Positions 9,134 to 18,538 are shown, numbered from the stretch's first letter. The stretch: 64,000 bases of DNA from Candidatus Latescibacterota bacterium (GCA_965261395.1 OZ253462.1:2176001-2240000); one strand, 5' to 3'. The notes: generated from the letters alone by a model not told the origin. Made by a program: numbers and translations.

Positions 9134-10129
9134 ATGACCGCTTTCACCTATCAAGACTTCGACCGCCAGCTCTGGGATCAAGAACTCGAAGACTTCGTCC
9201 CCACCACGGTTTACGACATGCACACGCACCTGTGGTCTGAGGACCACCGAGGCTCCTTGACGGGCGCGCCTACCGGCCTGCGCGAGGAGATCGACTACCG
9301 CGATCACCTCGACTGGGCGGCTAAACTCTACCCAGGCCGCGCCTTCCACATGCTGGCCTTGGGCACCCCGATACCGGGCATGGATGCCGCAGGGCACAAC
9401 GCCTGGATGGCGGCCCAGCTTGCCGCCGACCCCGAATCCGCGATCAACATGATGGTCACCCCGGATATGACGCCCGAATACGTGGCGGCCCAAGTCGATG
9501 AATATGGATTCCTCGGGCTCAAACCCTACCGCACCTTTGCCCCAGACCCAGCCGGTGCCCGCATCTGCGACTTCCTCCCGGAATCCCTCATCGAACTCGC
9601 CCACCACAAGAAGCTGGCCATCACCATGCACCTCGCCAAACCCACCGGCCCAGCCGACCCAGAAAACCAACGCGACTTAACGCGCTACACCCGCGAATAC
9701 CCCAACGCGCAGTGGATTTTGGCCCACTGCGCCCGCTCGTTCAATTCCTTTATGATGGAAGAGGCCGTCCACTTCCTGTGCGATCTGCCCAATATATGGT
9801 ACGACACCTCAGCGGTGAACGACCTGTATTCTCACTATTTGCTGATGAAACACGAGGACCGCAAGCGGGTGATGTTCGGGTCGGACAACGTGGTCGCTGG
9901 CTGTGCGCGCGGCAAGTACATCACCTATGGTCGCGCCTGGCTGTTCTATCCTGGGGACGATTCCGGCACGCCGCACTGCGACTCGCGGGCCACGCTCGTC
10001 ATCTACGAACAACTGCGCCAAGAGCGGCAAGTGGCCGAGATGCTGCAACTAACGCCCGCGGAAATCGAAGATCACTTTGCCGGGAATGCGCAGCGGTTTT
10101 TGGCGATGATGCGCGGACAGACTGCGTAG
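9134..10129 (+). CDS. Amidohydrolase family (Amidohydro_2) protein
   Basis: DMHTH, LAHCAR, YDTS, MFGSD. Confidence 0.85.
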   Translation: MTAFTYQDFDRQLWDQELEDFVPTTVYDMHTHLWSEDHRGSLTGAPTGLREEIDYRDHLDWAAKLYPGRAFHMLALGTPIPGMDAAGHNAWMAAQLAADPESAINMMVTPDMTPEYVAAQVDEYGFLGLKPYRTFAPDPAGARICDFLPESLIELAHHKKLAITMHLAKPTGPADPENQRDLTRYTREYPNAQWILAHCARSFNSFMMEEAVHFLCDLPNIWYDTSAVNDLYSHYLLMKHEDRKRVMFGSDNVVAGCARGKYITYGRAWLFYPGDDSGTPHCDSRATLVIYEQLRQERQVAEMLQLTPAEIEDHFAGNAQRFLAMMRGQTA

Positions 10130-10136
10130 CGTTCGT
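10055..10136 (+). repeat. 82-bp direct repeat, copy 1 (3' end of the amidohydrolase gene plus 7 bp)
   Basis: Matches 12469-12550 at 76/82 positions by manual alignment. Confidence 0.95.
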
Positions 10137-10194
10137 CAATGTGCTTCTTGAAGCACAGGTGCTTATACTTTAGATATCCATCTGGAGACCGGGA

Positions 10195-10440
10195 GTGAAT
10201 CAACAAAAGCGCAATGAGCGCAAATTCAAAAACTGGACTGATTTACAAGATGGTGGACGACAATACTGGTACGATGTCCCCGGTCGTCAGGGATGGAAGG
10301 CACGCTATGTAAAGGAAGTAAACGAGAGCGAAGAGACGGTACGATTCTACCAGCAAATCTACGACCAAGATGGACAGTTGGTAGAAGTACATCAGAAGTA
10401 TCCAGAAGATACCGGGCACCAACTCGTTGGAAAGGAGTAA
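10195..10440 (+). CDS. Small 81-aa hypothetical protein (possible toxin-like component)
   Basis: GGAG RBS + GTG; lower GC than the flanks; 3-bp gap to the next gene. Confidence 0.75.
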   Translation: MNQQKRNERKFKNWTDLQDGGRQYWYDVPGRQGWKARYVKEVNESEETVRFYQQIYDQDGQLVEVHQKYPEDTGHQLVGKE

Positions 10441-10443
10441 GCC

Positions 10444-11181
10444 ATGGAACTCATCACGTCTGAAGTGCTCGCAGACAAAATAAGGACCTACTTACAGCAC
10501 CGATCGTCCCTCGCAGAGTTGGTAGAATGGGCAGAAAACGCGATGATGGACGGCGAGTTTGAGGAAACGAATGACTATGCGATCCGCGATATTACGGGTC
10601 GCTTAGGCGTTGCAGACGTAAAGACATTTAGCTTGAGCAAGGAAGATTTCGAGCAGTTTCTTTCGCAGTTGGAGCATACAGTACGGAAAGAGAACGGGAA
10701 CATGGCTATTCCGAATGGTTTATTGAAGTGGGACATCCCCCAGTTATCGGAAGCACTGCAAATTCCGCAAGACGATGTGCATGATTACTTCACCGATGGC
10801 CGCCGAGTATCCTTTCTACTCGAGCGACGCATAGCTTACCAAGTGCTCAAGGGCTCGCTAGCCAGTAGCGAAGGAGCGGGCTATGACGTACTGGATTCCA
10901 CAGGCCACAAATGGGAAGTCCGCAGTGTGTCCAGAAATGGTATCTATTTTTGTCCCAGCTATATGGTTGGATCAGGAAGGCGCTTTGAAGAGAATGGTTT
11001 TCTACAGAAATTAGACGAGATCGCCGGCTATATTGTCTCTGACATCGAATGTTTCCCCTCCGTACCGTACTGGCAAATTCAGGCGGACACGGTACGAGCT
11101 TGGTGGCTTCATGGGCAGCTTGGTGCAGCGTCGAGGATAAGCCGCGCCAAGGCTCTAGCCTTACTCAGGAGTATATCGTGA
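10444..11181 (+). CDS. Fusion of an ~85-aa acidic helical domain and a PD-(D/E)XK-like putative restriction endonuclease
   Basis: AAGGAG RBS; C-terminal half has E...YD-VLDSTGHKW-EVR; internal in-frame ATG at 10702; stop overlaps the MTase start. Confidence 0.65.
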   Translation: MELITSEVLADKIRTYLQHRSSLAELVEWAENAMMDGEFEETNDYAIRDITGRLGVADVKTFSLSKEDFEQFLSQLEHTVRKENGNMAIPNGLLKWDIPQLSEALQIPQDDVHDYFTDGRRVSFLLERRIAYQVLKGSLASSEGAGYDVLDSTGHKWEVRSVSRNGIYFCPSYMVGSGRRFEENGFLQKLDEIAGYIVSDIECFPSVPYWQIQADTVRAWWLHGQLGAASRISRAKALALLRSIS

Positions 11182-12443
11182 CTACACCCCAACTCGAATT
11201 ATTCCCCCCTGAGCCTCCTCGACTACGGCCTCTAAACGCCAAGGAATTCGCCGACGAAATCCAAGCCTTTGCGGATTTTGGCAAAGAGACGAACATCCTC
11301 GACTTTCCCGATCCCGCCATTTCCATTCCGGTGTACGTCAACGAGTTCTGGACCTCCAAGCAGCGCGCCGCCCACTCGCTCCACGAGGTCTCCTATCGCG
11401 CCTGTTTCAAGCCGCAATTGCCGAGGTTTTTCATTAGCCGCCTGACGCAACCCGGCGACGCGGTGTACGACCCGTTCATGGGGCGCGGCACCACTGTCCT
11501 CGAAGCGGCGCTGTTGGGCCGCCGCCCCATCGGCTGCGACATAAATCCTCTCAGCGAGCACCTAGTCCGCCCTCGCCTAGATCCACCCGCATGGAACGAG
11601 GTAGAGACGCGCTTAATGGCGCTGGACCTCGATAAATCGAGCGAGGTCTGGGACGATCTCCTTGTTTTTTATCATCCTAATACTCTCCACCAAATCGCCA
11701 ACCTGCGCTCCTACCTCCTCACGCGCCGCCAAGAGGGGACCCTAGATCGCGCCGATGCGTGGATTCAGATGGTGGCGACCAACCGCCTGACCGGGCACTC
11801 GCCGGGATTTTTCTCCGTATATACGCTGCCGCCTAATCAGGCGGTGTCCATCGAGTCGCAAAAACGCATCAACCAAAAACGCGCTCAAGTGCCGCCTGAA
11901 CGCGACATAAAGGCCATCATCCTCCGCAAGACGCGATCCTTACTGAGCAAGCTGCAAGCACACGATCTGGAAACGCTGACGGCGAATATCCCCCTGCTTA
12001 TAACCGGCTCGTCTGACAATACCTCCGCCATCGTCAGTGAATCCATCCAACTGGCCGTTACCTCGCCGCCCTTTTTGGACATTGTCAACTACCAAGCAGA
12101 CAACTGGCTGCGCTGCTGGTTTAACGGCATCGACGCCAAGGAGGTGGCTATATGGCAATTGAAAAAACCAGCGGAGTGGCAAGCAGCGATGACCCGTACC
12201 TTCCGAGAGTTGCATCGGGTCCTCGCAAGCGGGGGCTTTGTTGCCTTTGAGGTGGGCGAGGTCCGCAATGGCAAAATCCTACTGGAAACCCTCGTCGTGC
12301 CCGCGGCCATGGAGGCTGGCCTCAAGCCGCTGATGGTTTTGGTCAACGATCAGATGTTCACCAAAACCGCAAACTGCTGGGGCGTGGACAACCGCACAAA
12401 AGGCACCAACACCAATCGGATCGTCCTGATCGGTAAGCCGTAG
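11178..12443 (+). CDS. DNA amino-methyltransferase, probably N4-cytosine (alpha-type motif order)
   Basis: AGGAG + GTG 11178 (GTGA overlap); motif I DPFMGRGTT precedes motif IV TSPPF. Confidence 0.88.
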   Translation: MTTPQLELFPPEPPRLRPLNAKEFADEIQAFADFGKETNILDFPDPAISIPVYVNEFWTSKQRAAHSLHEVSYRACFKPQLPRFFISRLTQPGDAVYDPFMGRGTTVLEAALLGRRPIGCDINPLSEHLVRPRLDPPAWNEVETRLMALDLDKSSEVWDDLLVFYHPNTLHQIANLRSYLLTRRQEGTLDRADAWIQMVATNRLTGHSPGFFSVYTLPPNQAVSIESQKRINQKRAQVPPERDIKAIILRKTRSLLSKLQAHDLETLTANIPLLITGSSDNTSAIVSESIQLAVTSPPFLDIVNYQADNWLRCWFNGIDAKEVAIWQLKKPAEWQAAMTRTFRELHRVLASGGFVAFEVGEVRNGKILLETLVVPAAMEAGLKPLMVLVNDQMFTKTANCWGVDNRTKGTNTNRIVLIGKP

Positions 12444-12468
12444 AGGAATTGCCCTAGCCCCCCATCCA

Positions 12469-12550
12469 CCCACGGAAGTCGAAGATCACTTTGCCGGGAA
12501 TGCCCAGCGGTTTTTGGCGATGATGCGCGGACCGGCTGCGTAGCGTCCGT
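12469..12550 (+). repeat. 82-bp direct repeat, copy 2
   Basis: Duplicate of 10055-10136; abuts the stop codon of the convergent oxidoreductase. Confidence 0.95.
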
Positions 12551-13578
12551 TACCCTCTCGGCAGTGGCAGTTCCACCTTCGTACTACCCTCGGCCTGTGA
12601 CCGCAGCGCGGCTACCATGATTTCCAGCACGTGCCGGCCACGCACCGCCGGCGACGAACTGGACGCGTCGCCCTGTATCGCCTGCGCCAGCTCCTGCACA
12701 GCCGGAATCAGATTCGCGCCAAAAGGACTGGCATACCCGCGGCCCGGCGGCGGCGACACGGCCTCGGGCGTCCCCTCAGGAGCATCGGTCTTCCAAGCCA
12801 TGCACTGCTGATCGGTCATCCAGAAGCGACCATCCGTGCCCTGTAGGTCTAGCTCGAACATCTGCGGCGTCCGCTTGGCGCAATTGATCAGCCCGCGCAC
12901 CCCATTGGCAAACTCCACGATGATCGTCGATCCGGGATCGAATTGCGGATCTTTGCCGCCTCGACCGTCGTACACCGGGCCGTAGTTTTCAAACCCGCGC
13001 TCGTGCGCGGCGATCACCCACACTGGCTCAGCGTCCGCAAAAAAGCAGACCGCATCCACCAAGTGCGTCCCATTGCGAAAGAGCATGGCGCGCCGACCTC
13101 CGAGATGCGCCACAATCCTAGTCAGGCTGCCGATCTCGCCGTTGCGGATGGCCGTGCGCACGGCCTGATAGGAAGGTAGCCAACTGCGCGTGTGATCCAC
13201 CGACAACACCGCGTTGTGGCGAGCGAGCGCGTCGATGATGCGGTCGGCGTCCTCCGCCGTGGTCGCCAGCGGCTTCTCGCAAAAAATGCCGCGTACGCCC
13301 GCGGCCACTGCATCGCAGACTGGGCCGACATGGAGGTGATCCGGGGTGGCCACGCTCACCACGTCGAGGCGTTCCCGTTCCAACATCGCGCGGTAATCCG
13401 CGTATTCGGCGACGGATCCTCGCTCGATCTCGGCCCGCTCGTAAAAGCGCGCCAGCACCTCCGGGTTTATGTCGCAGACCGCCACGAATTCGTATTCCGG
13501 GGCGCGGGCGTATGCATATCCATGACCCCCACCCACTCCAGCGCCAATAACGGCTGCGCGCAATTTGCCTTCAGACAT
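12550..13578 (-). CDS. Gfo/Idh/MocA family oxidoreductase
   Basis: AAVIGAG, VATPDHLH, CEKP, GTHLVD; start MSEGK after AAGGA. Confidence 0.9.
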   Translation of the reverse strand: MSEGKLRAAVIGAGVGGGHGYAYARAPEYEFVAVCDINPEVLARFYERAEIERGSVAEYADYRAMLERERLDVVSVATPDHLHVGPVCDAVAAGVRGIFCEKPLATTAEDADRIIDALARHNAVLSVDHTRSWLPSYQAVRTAIRNGEIGSLTRIVAHLGGRRAMLFRNGTHLVDAVCFFADAEPVWVIAAHERGFENYGPVYDGRGGKDPQFDPGSTIIVEFANGVRGLINCAKRTPQMFELDLQGTDGRFWMTDQQCMAWKTDAPEGTPEAVSPPPGRGYASPFGANLIPAVQELAQAIQGDASSSSPAVRGRHVLEIMVAALRSQAEGSTKVELPLPRG

Positions 13579-13698
13579 CTCTCGTTCCTTTCTCAAGTTG
13601 TCATGCGCCCGCGCACAAAAGCCGCTGACGCCGCCACCTGCTCCTCTTCGAGACTGTGCAATATCAACGACCCGTCAAAGCCGATCTGCCGCAAGAGC
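13570..13698. repeat. 129-bp direct repeat, copy 1 (isomerase 3' end + RBS + first codons of the oxidoreductase)
   Basis: 128/129 identical to 15883-16011. Confidence 0.97.
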
Positions 13699-13811
13699 AC
13701 TTTCGTATCACTAGGTAAGCTGATCAGGATTCGTTACGGCACTCATCATGTTGCTCTTCCTCCGTCTTCGTAAGGACTTGAGGCGACATCTCCAGCATCA
13801 TGTTTCTTCCC

Positions 13812-14579
13812 CTACTTGAACCGATTGGGACACTCCACCTGAAGCGGGGCGGGGCCGCGCCGCCCATATAGCCGCCGCCGCGGTAGTTCGATACCGCCTT
13901 TTATCAAACCAGCCCAGACCGGCGTTTGTTCGTGACCAGTGCGGCTTGCCTCTGCGCGAACCTGTTTTGTGACCTCCTCCATCAGGACGCCAATGTCTGT
14001 CCAGTTAGGTCCGTCTTGGAGCACGCGCAGTATGGCCGCGGTAAAGAGGCCATGCTGTCCGAGTTCCAAGGCCTCTTGATCGTCCTTAGCTGCTGCAAGC
14101 ACGATTCGACCGGCACCGCCAAGATCGGTAACGCCAAGTACTCCACTACGCACGACGGGTAGCCCCTCGACAACACGAGCCGGCGCACCACCGCTGAAAC
14201 AACAGTCGAGAATGACCAAGCTAGCCCGCGCCGCCGTTCTCTTGAGGCGATAAGCGAGCTCTTGCATCAGGATTGTTGTCTGATCAACTGCATTCAGATC
14301 CGCATCGAACGGAACAAGCTGGTGGCCTGGAGTTCCGTGACCCGCGAAGAATACGATGCCCGTATCGTCTTGAGCCGCATCGCCGAGGGCCGAGTCAAGG
14401 GATTTACGAATCGAATCGACCGTCGCCTCATCATCGAGAAGCCTCTTGTCGGCGATGCCCTCGACGGAGTCTTTGAAGAGAGCCCAGAGAGCGATGGCGT
14501 CCTTGGTGGCACCGGTGAGTTCGTGGATTCGGGGGTCTCTGTATTTGTTGATTCCGATGAAAACGGCTCGAAGTGCCAT
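13812..14579 (-). CDS. Caspase-like (Peptidase C14) domain protein, probably C-terminally truncated
   Basis: FIGINKY, FAGHG and LDCCFSG catalytic His/Cys, GLFT, QTP; the tail after IELP looks non-homologous. Confidence 0.85.
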   Translation of the reverse strand: MALRAVFIGINKYRDPRIHELTGATKDAIALWALFKDSVEGIADKRLLDDEATVDSIRKSLDSALGDAAQDDTGIVFFAGHGTPGHQLVPFDADLNAVDQTTILMQELAYRLKRTAARASLVILDCCFSGGAPARVVEGLPVVRSGVLGVTDLGGAGRIVLAAAKDDQEALELGQHGLFTAAILRVLQDGPNWTDIGVLMEEVTKQVRAEASRTGHEQTPVWAGLIKGGIELPRRRLYGRRGPAPLQVECPNRFK

Positions 14580-14643
14580 ATCCTATTCAATCCTCAATCC
14601 ATGTTGTTGCCGAGAACACTCTCGTAGCCAACCAAGTAGGTCG

Positions 14644-15825
14644 TCATGCCTCTTCCGACAAGGCGGCGAATGCCTCATGGTCAACAGTTAGCACTTTGAG
14701 AGTTTGCTTGTGAACACCGATGTCGTGCTCGATCAGGAGATCAATTAGCTTTTCGCCGTCAATGAGTGTGATCGGCGCAGCCCCGCTTTCAAACGCGGCT
14801 TCCTTGGTGCCTTTCGCGAACTGGGAAGTCGCAATGATGGTTCCTCGGACAGCGTTAAACCTGTGAAGTGAGCCACGGAGGGCATCGAGTTCCTTGCGCT
14901 GGATGGTCCGCCGGTGGCGTTTAGCTTGGACGACTTCACGCACTGAAGTAATGCCGAGTTCAATATCGGCAATCACGTCAACGCCCCCGTCACCCGATGC
15001 AGGTGTCACTTCGACATTTTGGTAACCCATCTCCTCAAGGAGACGCTTCACAAGGTGCTCAAAGGCGGAGGCGTCCATGTTGATCAGGAGATCGCGGAGG
15101 CGCTCTCGGACCGACTCCTCTTGTTTCTTGACCAGCGACGGAAGCTCCTGCTGCTCATCATTGCCGAGAACTTCCTCGGTTCTAACCAGTTGGAGATATA
15201 CGAGGCCCGCATCGGTTAATGAGTACATCGCACTCCTGCGATTCACGAAGCCTCGGTCAATGAGATTGTTTAGTCGCCATTGGAGCGTGTTGCGAAAAGT
15301 CGAGCGACTGCCAAATGGAGAAGAATGGCGCTTGAGGTACTCGGTCCATTCTTCGAGTATGCCACTCGCACGTGTCGGCCCGTTGTTGGCCACAAGGGTC
15401 AAGAGCTTAACAAGCCCTTCCTGCTCATCGATGAGGGATTCTGTCTCACCCCGTTCGTGGTTGATGAAGTTTTGGCCGGCTTTGGTTAGGCGAAGATTAC
15501 TATCAGTATCATCTTCAAGCATTTCGTATTTTTGGCTCAGGTGCCAGACACCGGCGGTGTACCTTGGGTTGACAGTCTTACCGCTTTTCGTCCAGATAGC
15601 CCAAGCTAAGTCTTGATCTTCGCCCGAGAGGCGTTCGAGGATCCATGTGTCGGGATCCTTCCAATCGACAGGTTTCTGGGGCGTTCCACGCAGTTCGCTA
15701 ATCGTAGCCTGCAATCTGGTGATCTGTTTTTTGGGCCGCCCAGACCAGACCTGAAGGAGATGGCGAACTTTACGGTACATCGGAAACCACGGTACGCGGA
15801 CACGCTGCTTCGTCTCGTCAGTCAT
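14644..15825 (-). CDS. mrr: Mrr-family (type IV, modification-dependent) restriction endonuclease
   Basis: C-terminal Mrr_cat: FEHLV..LL..MGY, DGGVD, VQAKR, LIDGEKLIDLL. Confidence 0.88.
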   Translation of the reverse strand: MTDETKQRVRVPWFPMYRKVRHLLQVWSGRPKKQITRLQATISELRGTPQKPVDWKDPDTWILERLSGEDQDLAWAIWTKSGKTVNPRYTAGVWHLSQKYEMLEDDTDSNLRLTKAGQNFINHERGETESLIDEQEGLVKLLTLVANNGPTRASGILEEWTEYLKRHSSPFGSRSTFRNTLQWRLNNLIDRGFVNRRSAMYSLTDAGLVYLQLVRTEEVLGNDEQQELPSLVKKQEESVRERLRDLLINMDASAFEHLVKRLLEEMGYQNVEVTPASGDGGVDVIADIELGITSVREVVQAKRHRRTIQRKELDALRGSLHRFNAVRGTIIATSQFAKGTKEAAFESGAAPITLIDGEKLIDLLIEHDIGVHKQTLKVLTVDHEAFAALSEEA

Positions 15826-15882
15826 CTAGATAATTCCGTTTGGAGAGAACGCGGACGGACGCCAATTGGGGGAATAAAATTT

Positions 15883-16011
15883 TTCAGACATCTCTCGTCC
15901 CTTTCTCAAGTTGTCATGCGCCCGCGCACAAAAGCCGCTGACGCCGCCACCTGCTCCTCTTCGAGACTGTGCAATATCAACGACCCGTCAAAGCCGATCT
16001 GCCGCAAGAGC
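15883..16011. repeat. 129-bp direct repeat, copy 2
   Basis: Duplicate of 13570-13698. Confidence 0.97.
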
Positions 16012-16730
16012 GCCAAGTAGCGATCGTAGTCGAGCACACCCGTGCCCGCGGCTTGGTGCCCGGCGTCGCCATCCCGCTCCAAGTCCTTGGCGTGGGCCAA
16101 CCGAATTGAATCCCCGAGCAAGTCAAACGCCTCGTCTAAGATCTCGCGCATCCTCGGCAACTGGCCGGCGTGGAACAGGTTGGCTCCGTCGATGACCACC
16201 TGCAAATGCTTGGACCGCACCTCGTCGAGCAAACGCCGCGCCTTCGGCGCCGAATCCACCACATTGTTAACCTCCGGCTCGAACACGAGGGTTGCGCCCT
16301 GCGCCTCGGCGATCGCCACGGCCTCCTCCATGGCCGCGACCATATCGGCCCATGCGGCTGGCGTGCTGTTGTCGGGATGGCCGCCCCACATATAGTCGGG
16401 GTTGCGCGTTCCGGTGGAAAAGGTAATCAACTCCGTCCCCAACTTGCCGCTCGCAGCAGCCAGCGCGGCGAGCCAACCCATCCCGGCGCGACGCTTTTCC
16501 AAGTCGGGATCGATGATATTAAAAGTCCCCGACAGCGCGGCGATCTCAATCCCCCGCGTTGCGTGCGCAGCGCGAATGCGCTCGCAATCGGCGTCTGTCA
16601 GCGCCACTGGATCAATGCCCGCAGCCGTCAAATCGAGCTGAACGGCCTCCAAGCCAGCCGCCTGCACCCCGTCGAGGCTTTCCTCCAGCGTCGGCCGCGC
16701 AAAAACCTTGTGGAAAATCCCTAGCTTCAT
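15906..16730 (-). CDS. Sugar phosphate isomerase/epimerase (AP_endonuc_2 TIM barrel)
   Basis: FEPE, IDGAN, HAKD, GTGVLDY. Confidence 0.88.
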   Translation of the reverse strand: MKLGIFHKVFARPTLEESLDGVQAAGLEAVQLDLTAAGIDPVALTDADCERIRAAHATRGIEIAALSGTFNIIDPDLEKRRAGMGWLAALAAASGKLGTELITFSTGTRNPDYMWGGHPDNSTPAAWADMVAAMEEAVAIAEAQGATLVFEPEVNNVVDSAPKARRLLDEVRSKHLQVVIDGANLFHAGQLPRMREILDEAFDLLGDSIRLAHAKDLERDGDAGHQAAGTGVLDYDRYLALLRQIGFDGSLILHSLEEEQVAASAAFVRGRMTT

Positions 16731-16837: not shown

Positions 16838-18538
16838 TCATTTTGCCTCGCCCCAGTTCCGACCGACCCCCGCTTCGACGCGGATCGGCACGCGAAACGG
16901 CCGGCCCTTTGCGTCCTCCACGGGCGACTCCATGATCGACGCGATGAGATCGACGTATTCGGCAGCCTTGTCCCGAGGCGCTTCGAAGATTAGTTCGTCG
17001 TGGATTTGAACGAGCATTCGCGTCTCTGACGGGAGCGCGTTGTCTAAGGCGATCATCTTGTTGCGGCAGATGTCCGCGGCAGTGCCCTGAATCATCGAGT
17101 TAAAAGCGGTGCGGACATTGCCCTCGGGGAATCGCCGCCGCCGGCCGAACATGTTGACGATATGTCCGTGCCGGCGCGTGTAAGCGAGCACATCCTTGCT
17201 GACCTGCCGCACGTTTTTATAGGTCGTAAAGTAGGCTTCGATGAACGCTTTTGCTTCTGCGAGCGAAAGCCCGGTCGCGGACGACAACGCCTTAGCGCCC
17301 ATTCCGTAGAGCAGCCCGAAGTTGAGCGCTTTCGCCATATCCCGTTCCCCAGCAGTCACCTCTTCAATCGGTTTGTCGAAGATGTCGGCGACCGTCTTTT
17401 TATGGAGATCGATGTCTTGTTGGAACGCCTCCATCATCTTCGGGTCCTGGGCGTAATGGGCGGCGCAGCGCAGTTCTACTTGCGAAAAATCCACGTCGAT
17501 GAGGACATGATCCTCCTCGGCGACGAAAGCCGAGCGGATGGTCGCGCCTCGGGGGATTGCCTGCAGGTTCGGGTCGTTCGAGGAAAGGCGTCCGGTGATC
17601 GTCCCCGTCTGATTGAAGTTGCAGTGGATGCGACCCGTTTCCGGCAAGACGAGCTGCGGAAGTTTATCGACGTAGTTCGCGATCAGGGTCATCAGTTCTC
17701 GGTATTCGAGAATGAGCGGGACGACGGGGTGGCGGTGGCGCAAGGCTTCGAGGGCCCATTGGTTGACGGACTGGCGGCCGCGGCGCGTTTGGCGGCCTGA
17801 GGGCAGGTCTAAATCGCCGAACAACACTTTGCCGAGTTCAACGGTCGAATTGACGTGAAACCTCCTTCCGGCATGTGCCCATATTTCCTCTTCCAGTTCG
17901 CGGATGCGCAGCCGGTATTCGTCCCCGATGCGCTTGAGATGGTCGATGTCGAGGCGGATGCCCGTCTGTTCCATCTTCCGCAGAATGCGCATCGTCGGCA
18001 GTTCGTATTCGTAGTATAGATGGGCGAGCGTCGGCAGCTTGTCGATTTCCGGCTTGAACAATTCGTACAGTCGGAACGTGTAATCCGCGTCGGCGCAGGC
18101 GTACTCGGCGAGGTCGGGATTTTTGCCGAACAGCGTCAGTTGATGGAGGTCAACAAAGTCAACGGCTTCCTCGTCGAGCAGGTCCCGCGCGAGCCGTTTG
18201 AGCGACTTCGGGCGGTTTTCGTCGAGCAGGTGAGCCGCGATGAGCGTGTCGAAAATCTCCGCGCCTTCGAGGTCGATGTCGTGCCGTTCGAGGATCGTCA
18301 AATCGAACTTCGCGTGGTGGAATGCGAGCCGCTTTTGCCGCAGCATTTGCTGCAACTTCGGCGCGTCAATCGCCTCTGCGGGCAACCAGAACGCGCGGCG
18401 TGGCTCGCCGCAGAACGAAATCCCGGAGAGCCGCGCGCGCATCTTGTTCAGCGAATCGCCCTCCGTATCGACGGCCAGCGCGGCGTACGGTGCGATTTGC
18501 GCTAGGTCGCTCAGAACGCGGTAGTCCTTCTCCGCCAT
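16838..18538 (-). CDS. Family A DNA polymerase, Klenow-type (3'-5' exonuclease + polymerase, no 5' nuclease)
   Basis: ExoI DTE, ExoII HAKFD, ExoIII YACAD; TGRLSS; motif A DFSQVELR, motif B R..AKALNFGLLYG, motif C HDEL. Confidence 0.92.
   Translation of the reverse strand: MAEKDYRVLSDLAQIAPYAALAVDTEGDSLNKMRARLSGISFCGEPRRAFWLPAEAIDAPKLQQMLRQKRLAFHHAKFDLTILERHDIDLEGAEIFDTLIAAHLLDENRPKSLKRLARDLLDEEAVDFVDLHQLTLFGKNPDLAEYACADADYTFRLYELFKPEIDKLPTLAHLYYEYELPTMRILRKMEQTGIRLDIDHLKRIGDEYRLRIRELEEEIWAHAGRRFHVNSTVELGKVLFGDLDLPSGRQTRRGRQSVNQWALEALRHRHPVVPLILEYRELMTLIANYVDKLPQLVLPETGRIHCNFNQTGTITGRLSSNDPNLQAIPRGATIRSAFVAEEDHVLIDVDFSQVELRCAAHYAQDPKMMEAFQQDIDLHKKTVADIFDKPIEEVTAGERDMAKALNFGLLYGMGAKALSSATGLSLAEAKAFIEAYFTTYKNVRQVSKDVLAYTRRHGHIVNMFGRRRRFPEGNVRTAFNSMIQGTAADICRNKMIALDNALPSETRMLVQIHDELIFEAPRDKAAEYVDLIASIMESPVEDAKGRPFRVPIRVEAGVGRNWGEAK

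Follow-up and report, generated by a model that had tools for sequence, protein, structure and literature searches.

Two defence-gene cassettes flanked by long target duplications at a gene-junction cluster of a Candidatus Latescibacterota bacterium

Locus layout and content of the cassettes

In this study we describe a locus of a Candidatus Latescibacterota bacterium, in which two small cassettes, each placed between direct repeats, lie among three host genes. All coordinates refer to the window, that is the whole stretch of 64,000 nucleotides which was analysed (GCA_965261395.1, OZ253462.1:2176001-2240000). The first host gene encodes an amidohydrolase (9134..10129, plus strand; Pfam Amidohydro_2, 5e-16), which is full length and 87-94% conserved in relatives. 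It is followed by a GFO/IDH/MocA oxidoreductase gene (12550..13578, minus strand), with a likely start at the ATG at 13578, provided with a ribosome-binding site (the ORF listing runs to 13596), and by a xylose-isomerase-like TIM-barrel gene (15906..16730, minus strand; Pfam AP_endonuc_2, 1e-33). According to Pfam all three genes are full-length, so the claim of the sequence-only reading that the host genes had been left intact was confirmed.

The first repeat pair, DR1 (10055-10136 and 12469-12550), is 82 nt long with 76/82 identical positions by repeat search and ungapped comparison, the copies differing at repeat positions 4, 10, 36, 65, 67 and 79. The second pair, DR2 (13570-13698 and 15883-16011), spans 129 nt with 128/129 identical positions and the only mismatch at position 17. 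Both pairs had been reported with these lengths and identities and were found again, and in ungapped comparison the identity ends sharply at all four borders. The 6.55-Mb single-contig genome holds exactly two copies of DR2 and, in case of DR1, two full copies and two weak partial matches (49-57 nt, 77-86%). Comparison of DR1 with DR2 revealed no relation in sequence, which bears out a further point of the same reading. DR1A (10055..10136) comprises the last 75 nt of the amidohydrolase gene with 7 nt past the stop codon and is its working 3' end, and DR1B (12469..12550) is a second, non-coding copy of this end, adjoining the convergent oxidoreductase gene at its stop codon. DR2A (13570..13698) contains the real oxidoreductase start with its ribosome-binding site. 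It also holds, as a dead copy, the final 103 nt of the TIM-barrel gene; the working 3' end of this gene lies in DR2B (15883..16011). Since the 129-nt duplication runs from the end of the upstream gene through the ribosome-binding site into the downstream gene, of which it covers the first three codons, both host genes are whole and the second cargo would be read from host signals.

Cassette 1 (10137..12468, plus strand, 2332 nt) begins with a small ORF of 81 aa (10195..10440, plus strand), which has no family match and is partly kept in relatives with the full restriction-modification (R-M) unit. Next to it lies a gene for a type II restriction endonuclease of 245 aa (10444..11181, plus strand; PADLOC REase_II PDLC03550, 4e-43), for which neither Pfam nor NCBIfam gave a match. 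This gene adjoins that of an N6/N4 DNA methyltransferase (11181..12443, plus strand; PADLOC MTase_II PDLC03325, 6e-197; Pfam N6_N4_Mtase, 1e-19), whose ORF is listed from 11049, with the family match starting from residue 45, i.e. at about 11181. The adjoining endonuclease and methyltransferase genes make up a predicted type II R-M system.

Cassette 2 (13699..15882, minus strand, 2184 nt) is located within the operon that runs from the TIM-barrel to the oxidoreductase gene, in the direction of the operon. It carries an Mrr-family nuclease gene of 393 aa (14644..15825, minus strand; PADLOC PDC-S02, PDLC04796, 2e-140; Pfam Mrr_cat, 1e-29), in which the PADLOC match is full-length (residues 6-391 aligned to positions 3-384 of a model of 390), and which is a candidate single-gene defence system of the PDC-S02 type. 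Downstream, a caspase-domain gene of 255 aa (13812..14579, minus strand; Pfam Peptidase_C14, 3e-18) encodes a product with 91% identity to residues 1-236 of a 1005-aa protein of the relative G002, a neighbour of Mrr that matches HamB helicase models (1e-34). The 255-aa gene is the remnant of such a fusion of caspase and HamB-like helicase, the helicase part having been removed by a deletion of ~2.26 kb, with borders taken from comparison with relatives. As regards a Hachiman-like pair, in cassette 2 the HamB-type helicase is gone and the caspase part only is left, and no HamA family match was seen among PADLOC models for the nuclease partner. Judging from the sequence, Mrr is preceded by a putative leader ORF of 21 codons (15826..15891, minus strand), for which the duplicate of the oxidoreductase ribosome-binding site and ATG provides the start, and whose stop codon directly adjoins the Mrr start (TAGATG). 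In G002 the equivalent leader ends at the Mrr start with TAATG, and in G005 it reads on beyond this start. Both cassettes had been described as restriction-type; this description holds for cassette 1 and fails for cassette 2, where an Mrr-type nuclease and a caspase remnant occur with no methylase and no R-M pair.

Both cassettes are lower in G+C (0.539 and 0.547) than their flanks (0.61-0.64). Site-specific integration classically leaves foreign DNA between direct repeats, and the repeats here could be regarded as att sites of larger integrase-bearing islands or phages, which decayed to small cassettes. We consider this highly improbable. Like att islands, insertion sequences and transposons, the cassettes are flanked by direct repeats of the target; unlike them, they have no integrase or transposase (Pfam search of every larger ORF in the two cassettes), no tyrosine or serine recombinase in or beside them, no inverted repeat at the ends and no tRNA as a target (ARAGORN, window 1-30000), all of which agrees with the first description of the locus. 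Integrases are also absent from the variable segments of 18 relatives, and no integrase or recombinase family was found in any of the 101 cargo ORFs taken genome-wide. The repeats consist of ordinary coding sequence of unrelated host genes, and differing cassettes at the same junction have differing repeat borders. They are moreover far longer and more variable than the short target duplications of fixed length left by insertion sequences.

Empty sites and history of the cassettes in related genomes

The locus was compared with 22 related loci, 18 from the ingroup and 4 from the outgroup. The site of cassette 1 (site 1) is empty, with one repeat copy, in 2/18 ingroup loci (G004 and G018), that of cassette 2 (site 2) in 12/18, and in the four outgroup species site 2 is free of any insert the size of a cassette. 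The empty sites which the sequence-only reading proposed to look for were thus found, and the repeats, being single-copy in relatives without the cargo, are duplicated host sequence. The junction of cassette 1 with DR1B is identical in G000, G010, G019, G020 and G022, and that of Mrr with DR2B in G000, G002 and G005, and each cassette junction has a single origin. Public runs holding this stretch mix related strains, with a variant junction that shows as a loose end at 12530 in run X18, which might suggest that the repeats are an assembly artefact, such as a chimera of two strains. The same structures and junctions recur in other species that were assembled separately (G002, G005, G010, G019, G020 and G022), therefore assembly chimerism is not their cause; the repeat copies also differ from each other, at 6 positions in DR1 and at 1 in DR2, and an artefact can practically be dismissed.

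In all 13 occupied relatives that keep the amidohydrolase gene, the repeat copy at the amidohydrolase end matches over 62 nt only. Hence the 82-nt repeat was not the original duplication: the ancestral one at site 1 was 62 nt long (10055-10116) and reached 82 nt in this genome only, where 20 host-like bases were regained later. The notion of a recent capture does not hold either, because cassette 1 has one origin common to most of the ingroup and the divergence of Mrr follows that of the hosts; by these comparisons both cassettes are old residents that date back to the species radiation. Among the relatives, the restriction gene has been lost 3 or more times. The taxa without cassette 1 (G004, G006 and G018) group together in one clade within the occupied taxa of the flank tree (SH-aLRT 85-95; support for the key nodes is only moderate, 84-93, and recombination could blur the tree), and this fits one precise, repeat-mediated loss of cassette 1. 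Precise pop-out through the repeats, as proposed earlier, is in this way backed by one phylogenetic instance, at site 1.

The same core-gene pair carries differing defence cargo across the relatives. In G018, a diverged caspase-helicase cassette occupies the same host junction with both borders different and with a 48-nt repeat of 98% identity, so that the junction was reused independently by another cassette in another species. The DR2 copies, identical at 128/129 positions here, share only 89% identity in G002 in spite of the same junctions, a difference that may be counted in favour of gene conversion or re-formation of the repeats.

Further rearrangements were noticed around Mrr. In G005, a 158-nt dead copy of the 5' end of the TIM-barrel gene is placed between a 36-nt piece of DR2 and Mrr, a relic which suggests a duplication of about 860 nt. 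In G012 and G013, Mrr is located directly upstream of the TIM-barrel gene. At its 3' end, the Mrr module has one and the same border, window position 14632, in G005, G012 and G013. Its 5' border is 15882 in G000, G002 and G005, and the match to the window extends to 15888 in G012 and to 15885 in G013. Part of this overrun is a GAA(A) microhomology, found both in the host target and in the DNA upstream of Mrr, and a 9-nt near-match borders the 20 nt that DR1A regained; such microhomologies are short (3-9 nt) and could have arisen by chance.

The relic in G005, the position of Mrr in G012 and G013 with the 14632 border common to G005, and the shift of DR1 from 62 to 82 nt after insertion could all be accommodated if the repeats were worn remains of longer tandem duplications, in which unequal crossover beside a resident cassette duplicated the whole neighbour gene and deletions trimmed the copy. 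This would be a specific version of the recombination model, with repeat length reflecting erosion, not insertion. We regard the worn duplication, and with it such a meaning of repeat length, as possible but rather doubtful, given that no relic of a longer duplication lies beside DR2A in G000 and G002, nor at site 1. Furthermore, the dead copy in G005 is equally distant (84-91% identity) from every sampled TIM-barrel gene, therefore neither donor nor date can be named for it.

A known footprint and its occurrence across the genome

Nobusato et al. (2000), a study cited by Furuta et al. as their reference 37, reportedly described insertion with long target duplication of R-M genes. The footprint was later described by Furuta, Abe and Kobayashi (2010, PMC2853133) for R-M systems of types I-IV, with inserts below 20 kb, target duplications above 30 bp, no mobile element behind the repeats, and a repeat whose counterpart in a related genome, with both flanks but no insert, is a single copy. 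In their tables the repeats measure from 46 to about 420 nt and often overlap gene 3' ends, the cargo includes types II and IV, the intraspecific screen takes inserts with both R and M homologues, and the context screen lists type IV cases (PMC2853133). By these measures, the cassettes described here (2332 and 2184 nt) are below 20 kb, their duplications (62 nt ancestrally and 82 nt now, and 129 nt) exceed 30 bp, single-copy counterparts exist for site 1 in G004 and G018 and for site 2 in 12/18 ingroup loci, and the Pfam, tRNA and terminal inverted repeat searches were negative; R and M genes occur together in cassette 1, not in cassette 2. Both are small cassettes without a mobility gene between direct repeats of host sequence, and they belong to the known footprint (PMC2853133). 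What had been proposed as a capture route is thus not new but already described, and a single case is in itself not a new phenomenon. In comparison with the cases described there, ours offer a genus-wide history (one origin, a change in repeat length, loss of the restriction gene three times, a single precise loss of the cassette, and reuse of a junction), one of them lies inside an operon, and the genome shows the footprint also around non-R-M cargo (Hachiman, SoFic, TIR); the list given there has no Latescibacterota or Gemmatimonadota label (PMC2853133). Our literature search, which was of limited scope, returned no earlier report of the footprint around non-R-M defence cargo.

Within this genome, 6/14 of the repeat-flanked inserts checked have clean empty sites in relatives. 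Such sites were seen for the Hachiman insert in 11/24 relatives, for a C5-methylase cassette in 6/24, for the SoFic insert in 1/5 and for a TIR/SMC-like island in at least 8/24. Seven of the 14 (L040, L041, L055, L045, L053 and L043 with 5 relatives each, L042 with 24) gave neither a clean empty site nor a rejection. L032 was rejected as a target duplication, as in relatives the indel has borders that differ from those of the repeat. The inserts with clean empty sites, together with the different cassette of G018 and its 48-nt duplication at the same junction, substantiate the earlier idea of a recurrent route. The accompanying expectation of cargo rich in defence genes is borne out to a modest degree only: at E<=1e-15, PADLOC matches were obtained for 25/101 cargo ORFs versus 12/103 ORFs of size-matched random segments (p=0.018), and counted by segment for 14/39 versus 8/39 (p=0.21). 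No 8-mer is shared by at least 5 of the 94 cassette ends, the enriched 6-7-mers being A+T-rich words only, and promoter and terminator matches are no commoner than in shuffles. In a mosaic test of the Hachiman-site repeat copies the mismatches were scattered, with no donor signature.

Since nucleases are encoded in both cassettes, the cargo itself may have driven the insertion, its restriction or Mrr nuclease breaking the chromosome and repair capturing the cassette with a long duplication; Furuta et al. point to some property shared by the R-M types in general, such as double-strand breakage (PMC2853133). We find this explanation unlikely, if conceivable for these two cassettes. The same footprint, with clean empty sites, surrounds cargo devoid of a restriction nuclease, e.g. 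SoFic, and its presence around other kinds of cargo in the same genome therefore points to host recombination rather than to the cargo. Ku (PF02735) was not found in the single-contig genome, which makes end-joining capture unlikely, and duplications of 36 to about 290 nt, with a relic implying about 860 nt, fit a defined enzymatic stagger poorly. Fill-in of a staggered break, one of the routes first suggested for this locus, is disfavoured for the last two reasons.

Possible route of insertion and its meaning

Defence hotspots and islands lie between conserved core genes, and their cargo is exchanged by homologous recombination in the flanks. The locus resembles them in that one core-gene pair has differing defence cargo in relatives. 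To our knowledge, descriptions of hotspots give no prominence to a duplicated target flanking each cassette on either side, which is the defining footprint here. De Vries and Wackernagel are said to have described homology-facilitated illegitimate recombination in natural transformation, where a homologous anchor is combined with a microhomology joint and no element enzyme takes part. The likeness to our case lies in the anchor and the joint; ComEC is present in the genome and Ku was not found. Classically, that process deletes recipient DNA where the illegitimate joint forms; a duplication would require a joint behind the anchor, e.g. on a sister duplex.

In our opinion, the locus probably arose by two separate insertions with long target duplication into a hypervariable gene-junction cluster, through host recombination and without a recombinase of the cassettes. 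In the proposed order of events, cassette 1 would have entered once, in an ancestor of the ingroup species, into a cluster of amidohydrolase, convergent oxidoreductase and TIM-barrel genes, with the 62-nt duplication of the amidohydrolase 3' end. Cassette 2, with the Mrr-type nuclease and the now truncated caspase-helicase, would have been placed inside the operon. An illegitimate joint at the level of microhomology, formed beside homologous sequence, could leave a duplication with the cargo in between, possibly by unequal crossover in which the partner is a sister or related incoming DNA, or alternatively by Campbell-type entry of a circle bearing a fragment of the target. The unit may then spread among relatives by ordinary homologous recombination in the flanks, and the repeats may later permit gene conversion and precise deletion of RecA type. 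The duplication keeps tightly packed flanking genes intact, therefore such events survive at gene junctions. Because no circle, tandem duplication or donor allele was observed as an intermediate, we infer this cargo-independent mechanism and its molecular steps from their products; Logan contigs of mixed strains, which are blind to rare variants, listed no repeat-to-repeat empty-site joint and no circle junction, and this negative carries no weight as to excision in the population or the on/off defence which the sequence-only reading proposed.

The entry of defence genes into chromosomes without enzymes of mobile elements is still poorly explained, and the one named model links the footprint to restriction enzymes. 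The locus and its 22 related loci provide a dated, multi-step natural history of two insertions, in which the 62-nt ancestral duplication, the repeated loss of the restriction gene, the nested loss clade, the reuse of a junction and the old age of the cassettes are new details, and the genus would lend itself well, as a data set, to working out the mechanism. Related bacteria keep remodelling a locus where both cassettes are old residents. Tentatively, and with less than even confidence, we suggest that insertion with long target duplication is a cargo-independent, recombinase-free host route and not a property of R-M systems, and that it may be a main way through which this sponge-type genus takes up defence and toxin-antitoxin genes, reshuffles them and sheds them precisely. 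If so, the route would consist in unequal or microhomology-primed recombination at tolerated gene junctions, and the repeats would serve as living substrates on which conversion, loss and local hopping act, as in case of the Mrr module found on either side of one gene.

Repeats and cassettes at the two sites

Both direct repeats were recovered by repeat search and comparison, at the positions and identities reported in the sequence-only reading. DR1 (82 nt, 76/82 identical, 10055-10136 and 12469-12550) flanks cassette 1 at site 1, and DR2 (129 nt, 128/129 identical, 13570-13698 and 15883-16011) flanks cassette 2 at site 2. At each of the four borders the match breaks off abruptly. In the whole 6.55-Mb single-contig genome (G000) DR2 is present in two copies, and DR1 in two full copies accompanied by two weak partial matches. 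DR1 consists of the final 75 nt of the amidohydrolase gene and 7 nt past its stop, its second copy adjoining the stop of the oxidoreductase gene, which is convergent. DR2 joins the final 103 nt of the TIM-barrel gene, through a 14-nt spacer that carries the ribosome-binding site, to the first 9 nt of the oxidoreductase gene, ATGTCTGAA; the insertion at site 2 lies within this operon and in its direction, leaving both host genes whole. As had been claimed, no integrase or transposase family is encoded by any ORF of either cassette, no tRNA is found in window positions 1-30000 and no inverted repeats at the cassette ends. The G+C content of cassettes 1 and 2 is 0.539 and 0.547, respectively, versus 0.61-0.64 in the flanks.

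The description of both as restriction-type cassettes proved right for cassette 1 (10137-12468, three genes), a type II restriction-modification (R-M) unit comprising an 81-aa ORF without family match, a type II restriction endonuclease (PADLOC PDLC03550, 4e-43) and an N6/N4 DNA methyltransferase (PADLOC PDLC03325, 6e-197; Pfam N6_N4_Mtase). It has to be amended for cassette 2 (13699-15882, - strand, two genes), whose Mrr-family nuclease aligns along its entire length with PDC-S02, a candidate single-gene defence family (2e-140), and is accompanied by a 255-aa caspase-domain protein. The latter is a remnant, matching only residues 1-236 of its G002 orthologue (91% identity), with ~2.26 kb missing. 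In that relative the gene (L012:5123-8140, + strand) encodes a 1005-aa protein, an N-terminal caspase domain fused to a HamB-like DEAD-box helicase, and adjoins an Mrr-family PDC-S02 nuclease gene; the pair may be a Hachiman-like candidate in which the Mrr nuclease replaces HamA and a caspase is added. From the duplicated ribosome-binding site and ATG there runs a 21-codon ORF, with its stop directly against the Mrr start (TAGATG). The equivalent ORF ends with TAATG at the Mrr start in G002 and reads through beyond it in G005; we infer translational coupling of this ORF to Mrr.

History of the locus in related genomes

Having searched 40 related genomes, we took the locus from 18 same-genus species and mapped each; a sponge-metagenome run also contains related sequence (90-99% identity). 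The cassette 1 methylase is present in 14/18 relatives, four of which (G003, G007, G013, G019) keep the full R-M unit. In the other ten the methylase stands without the restriction gene, with deletion end-points at window positions 11226-11230 (8 species), 11200 (G022) and 11143 (G008); these three different end-points imply at least three losses of that gene. The junction between the cassette and the second DR1 copy (DR1B) is identical in all genomes retaining DR1B (G000, G010, G019, G020, G022), and cassette 1 at site 1 is one ancient insertion. The claim that the insertion itself had duplicated 82 bp did not hold. In 13/13 occupied relatives retaining the amidohydrolase, the repeat copy at its end matches over only 62 nt, beyond which cassette sequence provides the gene with a new stop codon. 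The 82-nt form occurs in G000 only, with a 9-nt near-match at the border of its extra 20 nt; this longer form is secondary.

Site 1 is empty, with a single repeat copy, in G004 and G018, and G006 lacks cassette 1 together with the oxidoreductase gene. In a tree of three flanking gene blocks from 21 taxa (G003 and G005, with blocks missing, were omitted), G000 is placed beside G022, while G004, G006 and G018 are nested within the occupied taxa as a single clade (SH-aLRT 85-95). Combined with a single origin of cassette 1, this nesting fits one precise loss through the repeats, a capacity that the sequence-only reading had foreseen.

At site 2, 12/18 relatives have the predicted empty arrangement of one DR2 copy and adjacent host genes, and four more distant species all lack an insert of cassette size there. 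G002 shares both junctions with G000, yet identity between its repeat copies is only 89%; the near-identity in G000 suggests that the repeats underwent gene conversion or were formed anew. In G005, where Mrr stands without the caspase gene, a 36-nt piece of DR2 is found together with 158 nt of dead TIM-barrel sequence copied from the gene's 5' end; this relic suggests an earlier duplication of the whole gene (~860 nt) next to Mrr. In G012 and G013, Mrr lies on the opposite side of the TIM-barrel gene, without a long repeat. In G018 the site holds a diverged caspase-helicase cassette that lacks Mrr, differs at both borders and has a 48-nt repeat, an independent reuse of the junction. Mrr identities between species (88-95%) are in step with those of host genes, so its residence at the locus goes back roughly to the radiation. 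On these comparisons both cassettes are old residents, not recent captures.

Several other features were observed at the locus. A perfect 30-nt palindrome lies directly 3' of the orphan methylase gene in L011 (3578-3607 of the reverse strand), G002, G009 and G013, relatives without DR1B; the same place holds a perfect 22-nt palindrome in G011 and G021 and an imperfect 32-nt one in G012. In 10/18 relatives, nine of them with cassette 1, the oxidoreductase is flanked on its amidohydrolase side by a PQQ-dependent dehydrogenase segment, which in G019 and G020 is bounded by a ~8-13 nt repeat derived from the former amidohydrolase end. A family-A DNA polymerase gene (16838-18538, - strand; 566 aa, 91% identity in relatives), with a 3'-5' and without a 5'-3' exonuclease domain, lies immediately upstream of the variable locus. 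The interval between the TIM-barrel and PolA-like genes is a third variable site, holding in nine relatives, and lacking in G000, a module of three genes (~135-144, 97 and 522 aa; L020:10649-12798 in G012) with no Pfam or PADLOC match.

Repeat-flanked inserts across the genome

A k-mer scan of G000 for isolated two-copy direct repeats (40-600 nt, >=88% identity, 0.7-25 kb apart) returned 46, DR1 being masked by the isolation filter. Cassettes 1 and 2 aside, 39 inserts of <=9 kb contained 101 ORFs, including R-M systems, an AHJR-type nuclease, Hachiman, GmrSD, a Dsr1/SIR2 protein, a TIR-TPR protein, and SoFic, BrnT and PIN/HEPN modules. These ORFs matched no integrase or recombinase family; IS transposases occur in 4/39 inserts, and a further two have transposase-like matches (UPF0236, weak Y1_Tnp). 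The proposed defence enrichment over random segments is modest: PADLOC matches at E<=1e-15 were obtained for 25/101 ORFs versus 12/103 in size-matched random segments (p=0.018), or, per segment, for 14/39 versus 8/39 (p=0.21). The random segments themselves matched Thoeris and other systems, so G000 is defence-rich throughout.

Clean empty sites were found in relatives for 6 of 14 inserts checked (cassettes 1 and 2 and 12 others), which, together with the reuse of the site 2 junction in G018, bears out the suggestion of a recurrent route. One is a Hachiman cassette (L057:1201-6219, G000:C1:5214858-5219876; HamA and HamB with a HIRAN domain) flanked by a ~180-210 nt duplication; its site is empty in 11/24 relatives, shares its junctions with G022 and houses other cargo in G006, G010 and G013. 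Another, L029 (L029:1201-5352, G000:C1:509057-513208), is a 3.8-kb cassette with a 192-nt flanking repeat (187/192), encoding a C5 DNA methylase, a PD-Lambda-5_A-like protein and two unknown ORFs; this cargo is found in 0/24 congeners, the site being empty in six and holding other inserts in four. The SoFic insert L047 has an empty site in 1/5 relatives. For the TIR/SMC island L031, one border of which has an additional 115-nt segment, the site is empty in at least 8/24.

The 233-nt repeat (91%) around an AAA_21/HEC-01 ATPase gene (L032:1201-4628, G000:C1:1349607-1353034) was the one case among the 14 to be rejected as a target duplication, since it does not lie at the indel borders of relatives; the inserted block includes duplicated host sequence, whose counterpart lies 700 nt from the insertion point. 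Two related IS4/5-type elements (L031:3050-3992 and L042:8057-8994, ~87% alike) each have at least nine further 100%-identical copies in G000, which suggests a recent IS expansion; several copies are located within defence islands.

A known footprint and its possible origin

The insertions are of an already known kind, the original paper on which reportedly dates from 2000. The sequence-only reading had proposed a recurrent, non-site-specific capture route; the footprint agrees with insertion with long target duplication as set out in PMC2853133, which describes it around R-M cargo of types I-IV, with repeats of 46 to ~420 nt often overlapping gene 3' ends, and gives its mechanism as unknown. 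A full-text search of limited literature found no description of this footprint around non-R-M defence cargo.

The R-M literature models a break driven by the cargo itself, which may apply to the two nuclease-bearing cassettes; the non-nuclease cargo elsewhere in G000 speaks against it as a general cause, and apart from this model the cargo offers no explanation of the insertions. Host recombination is favoured because the cassette ends share no motif, Ku was not found in the single-contig genome, duplication lengths vary (36 to ~290 nt among checked cases) and a 3-4 nt GAA/GAAA microhomology joins the host target to Mrr-upstream sequence in the G012/G013 context; ComEC is present in G000. We infer this mechanism, as no intermediate was seen. 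Under host recombination, an illegitimate joint beside homology would create the duplication, the unit would then spread by homology in its flanks, and recombination between the repeats would later remove or homogenise it. The locus usefully adds a natural history to the known footprint and, with the rest of the genome, gives a moderately interesting pointer to a mechanism independent of cargo.
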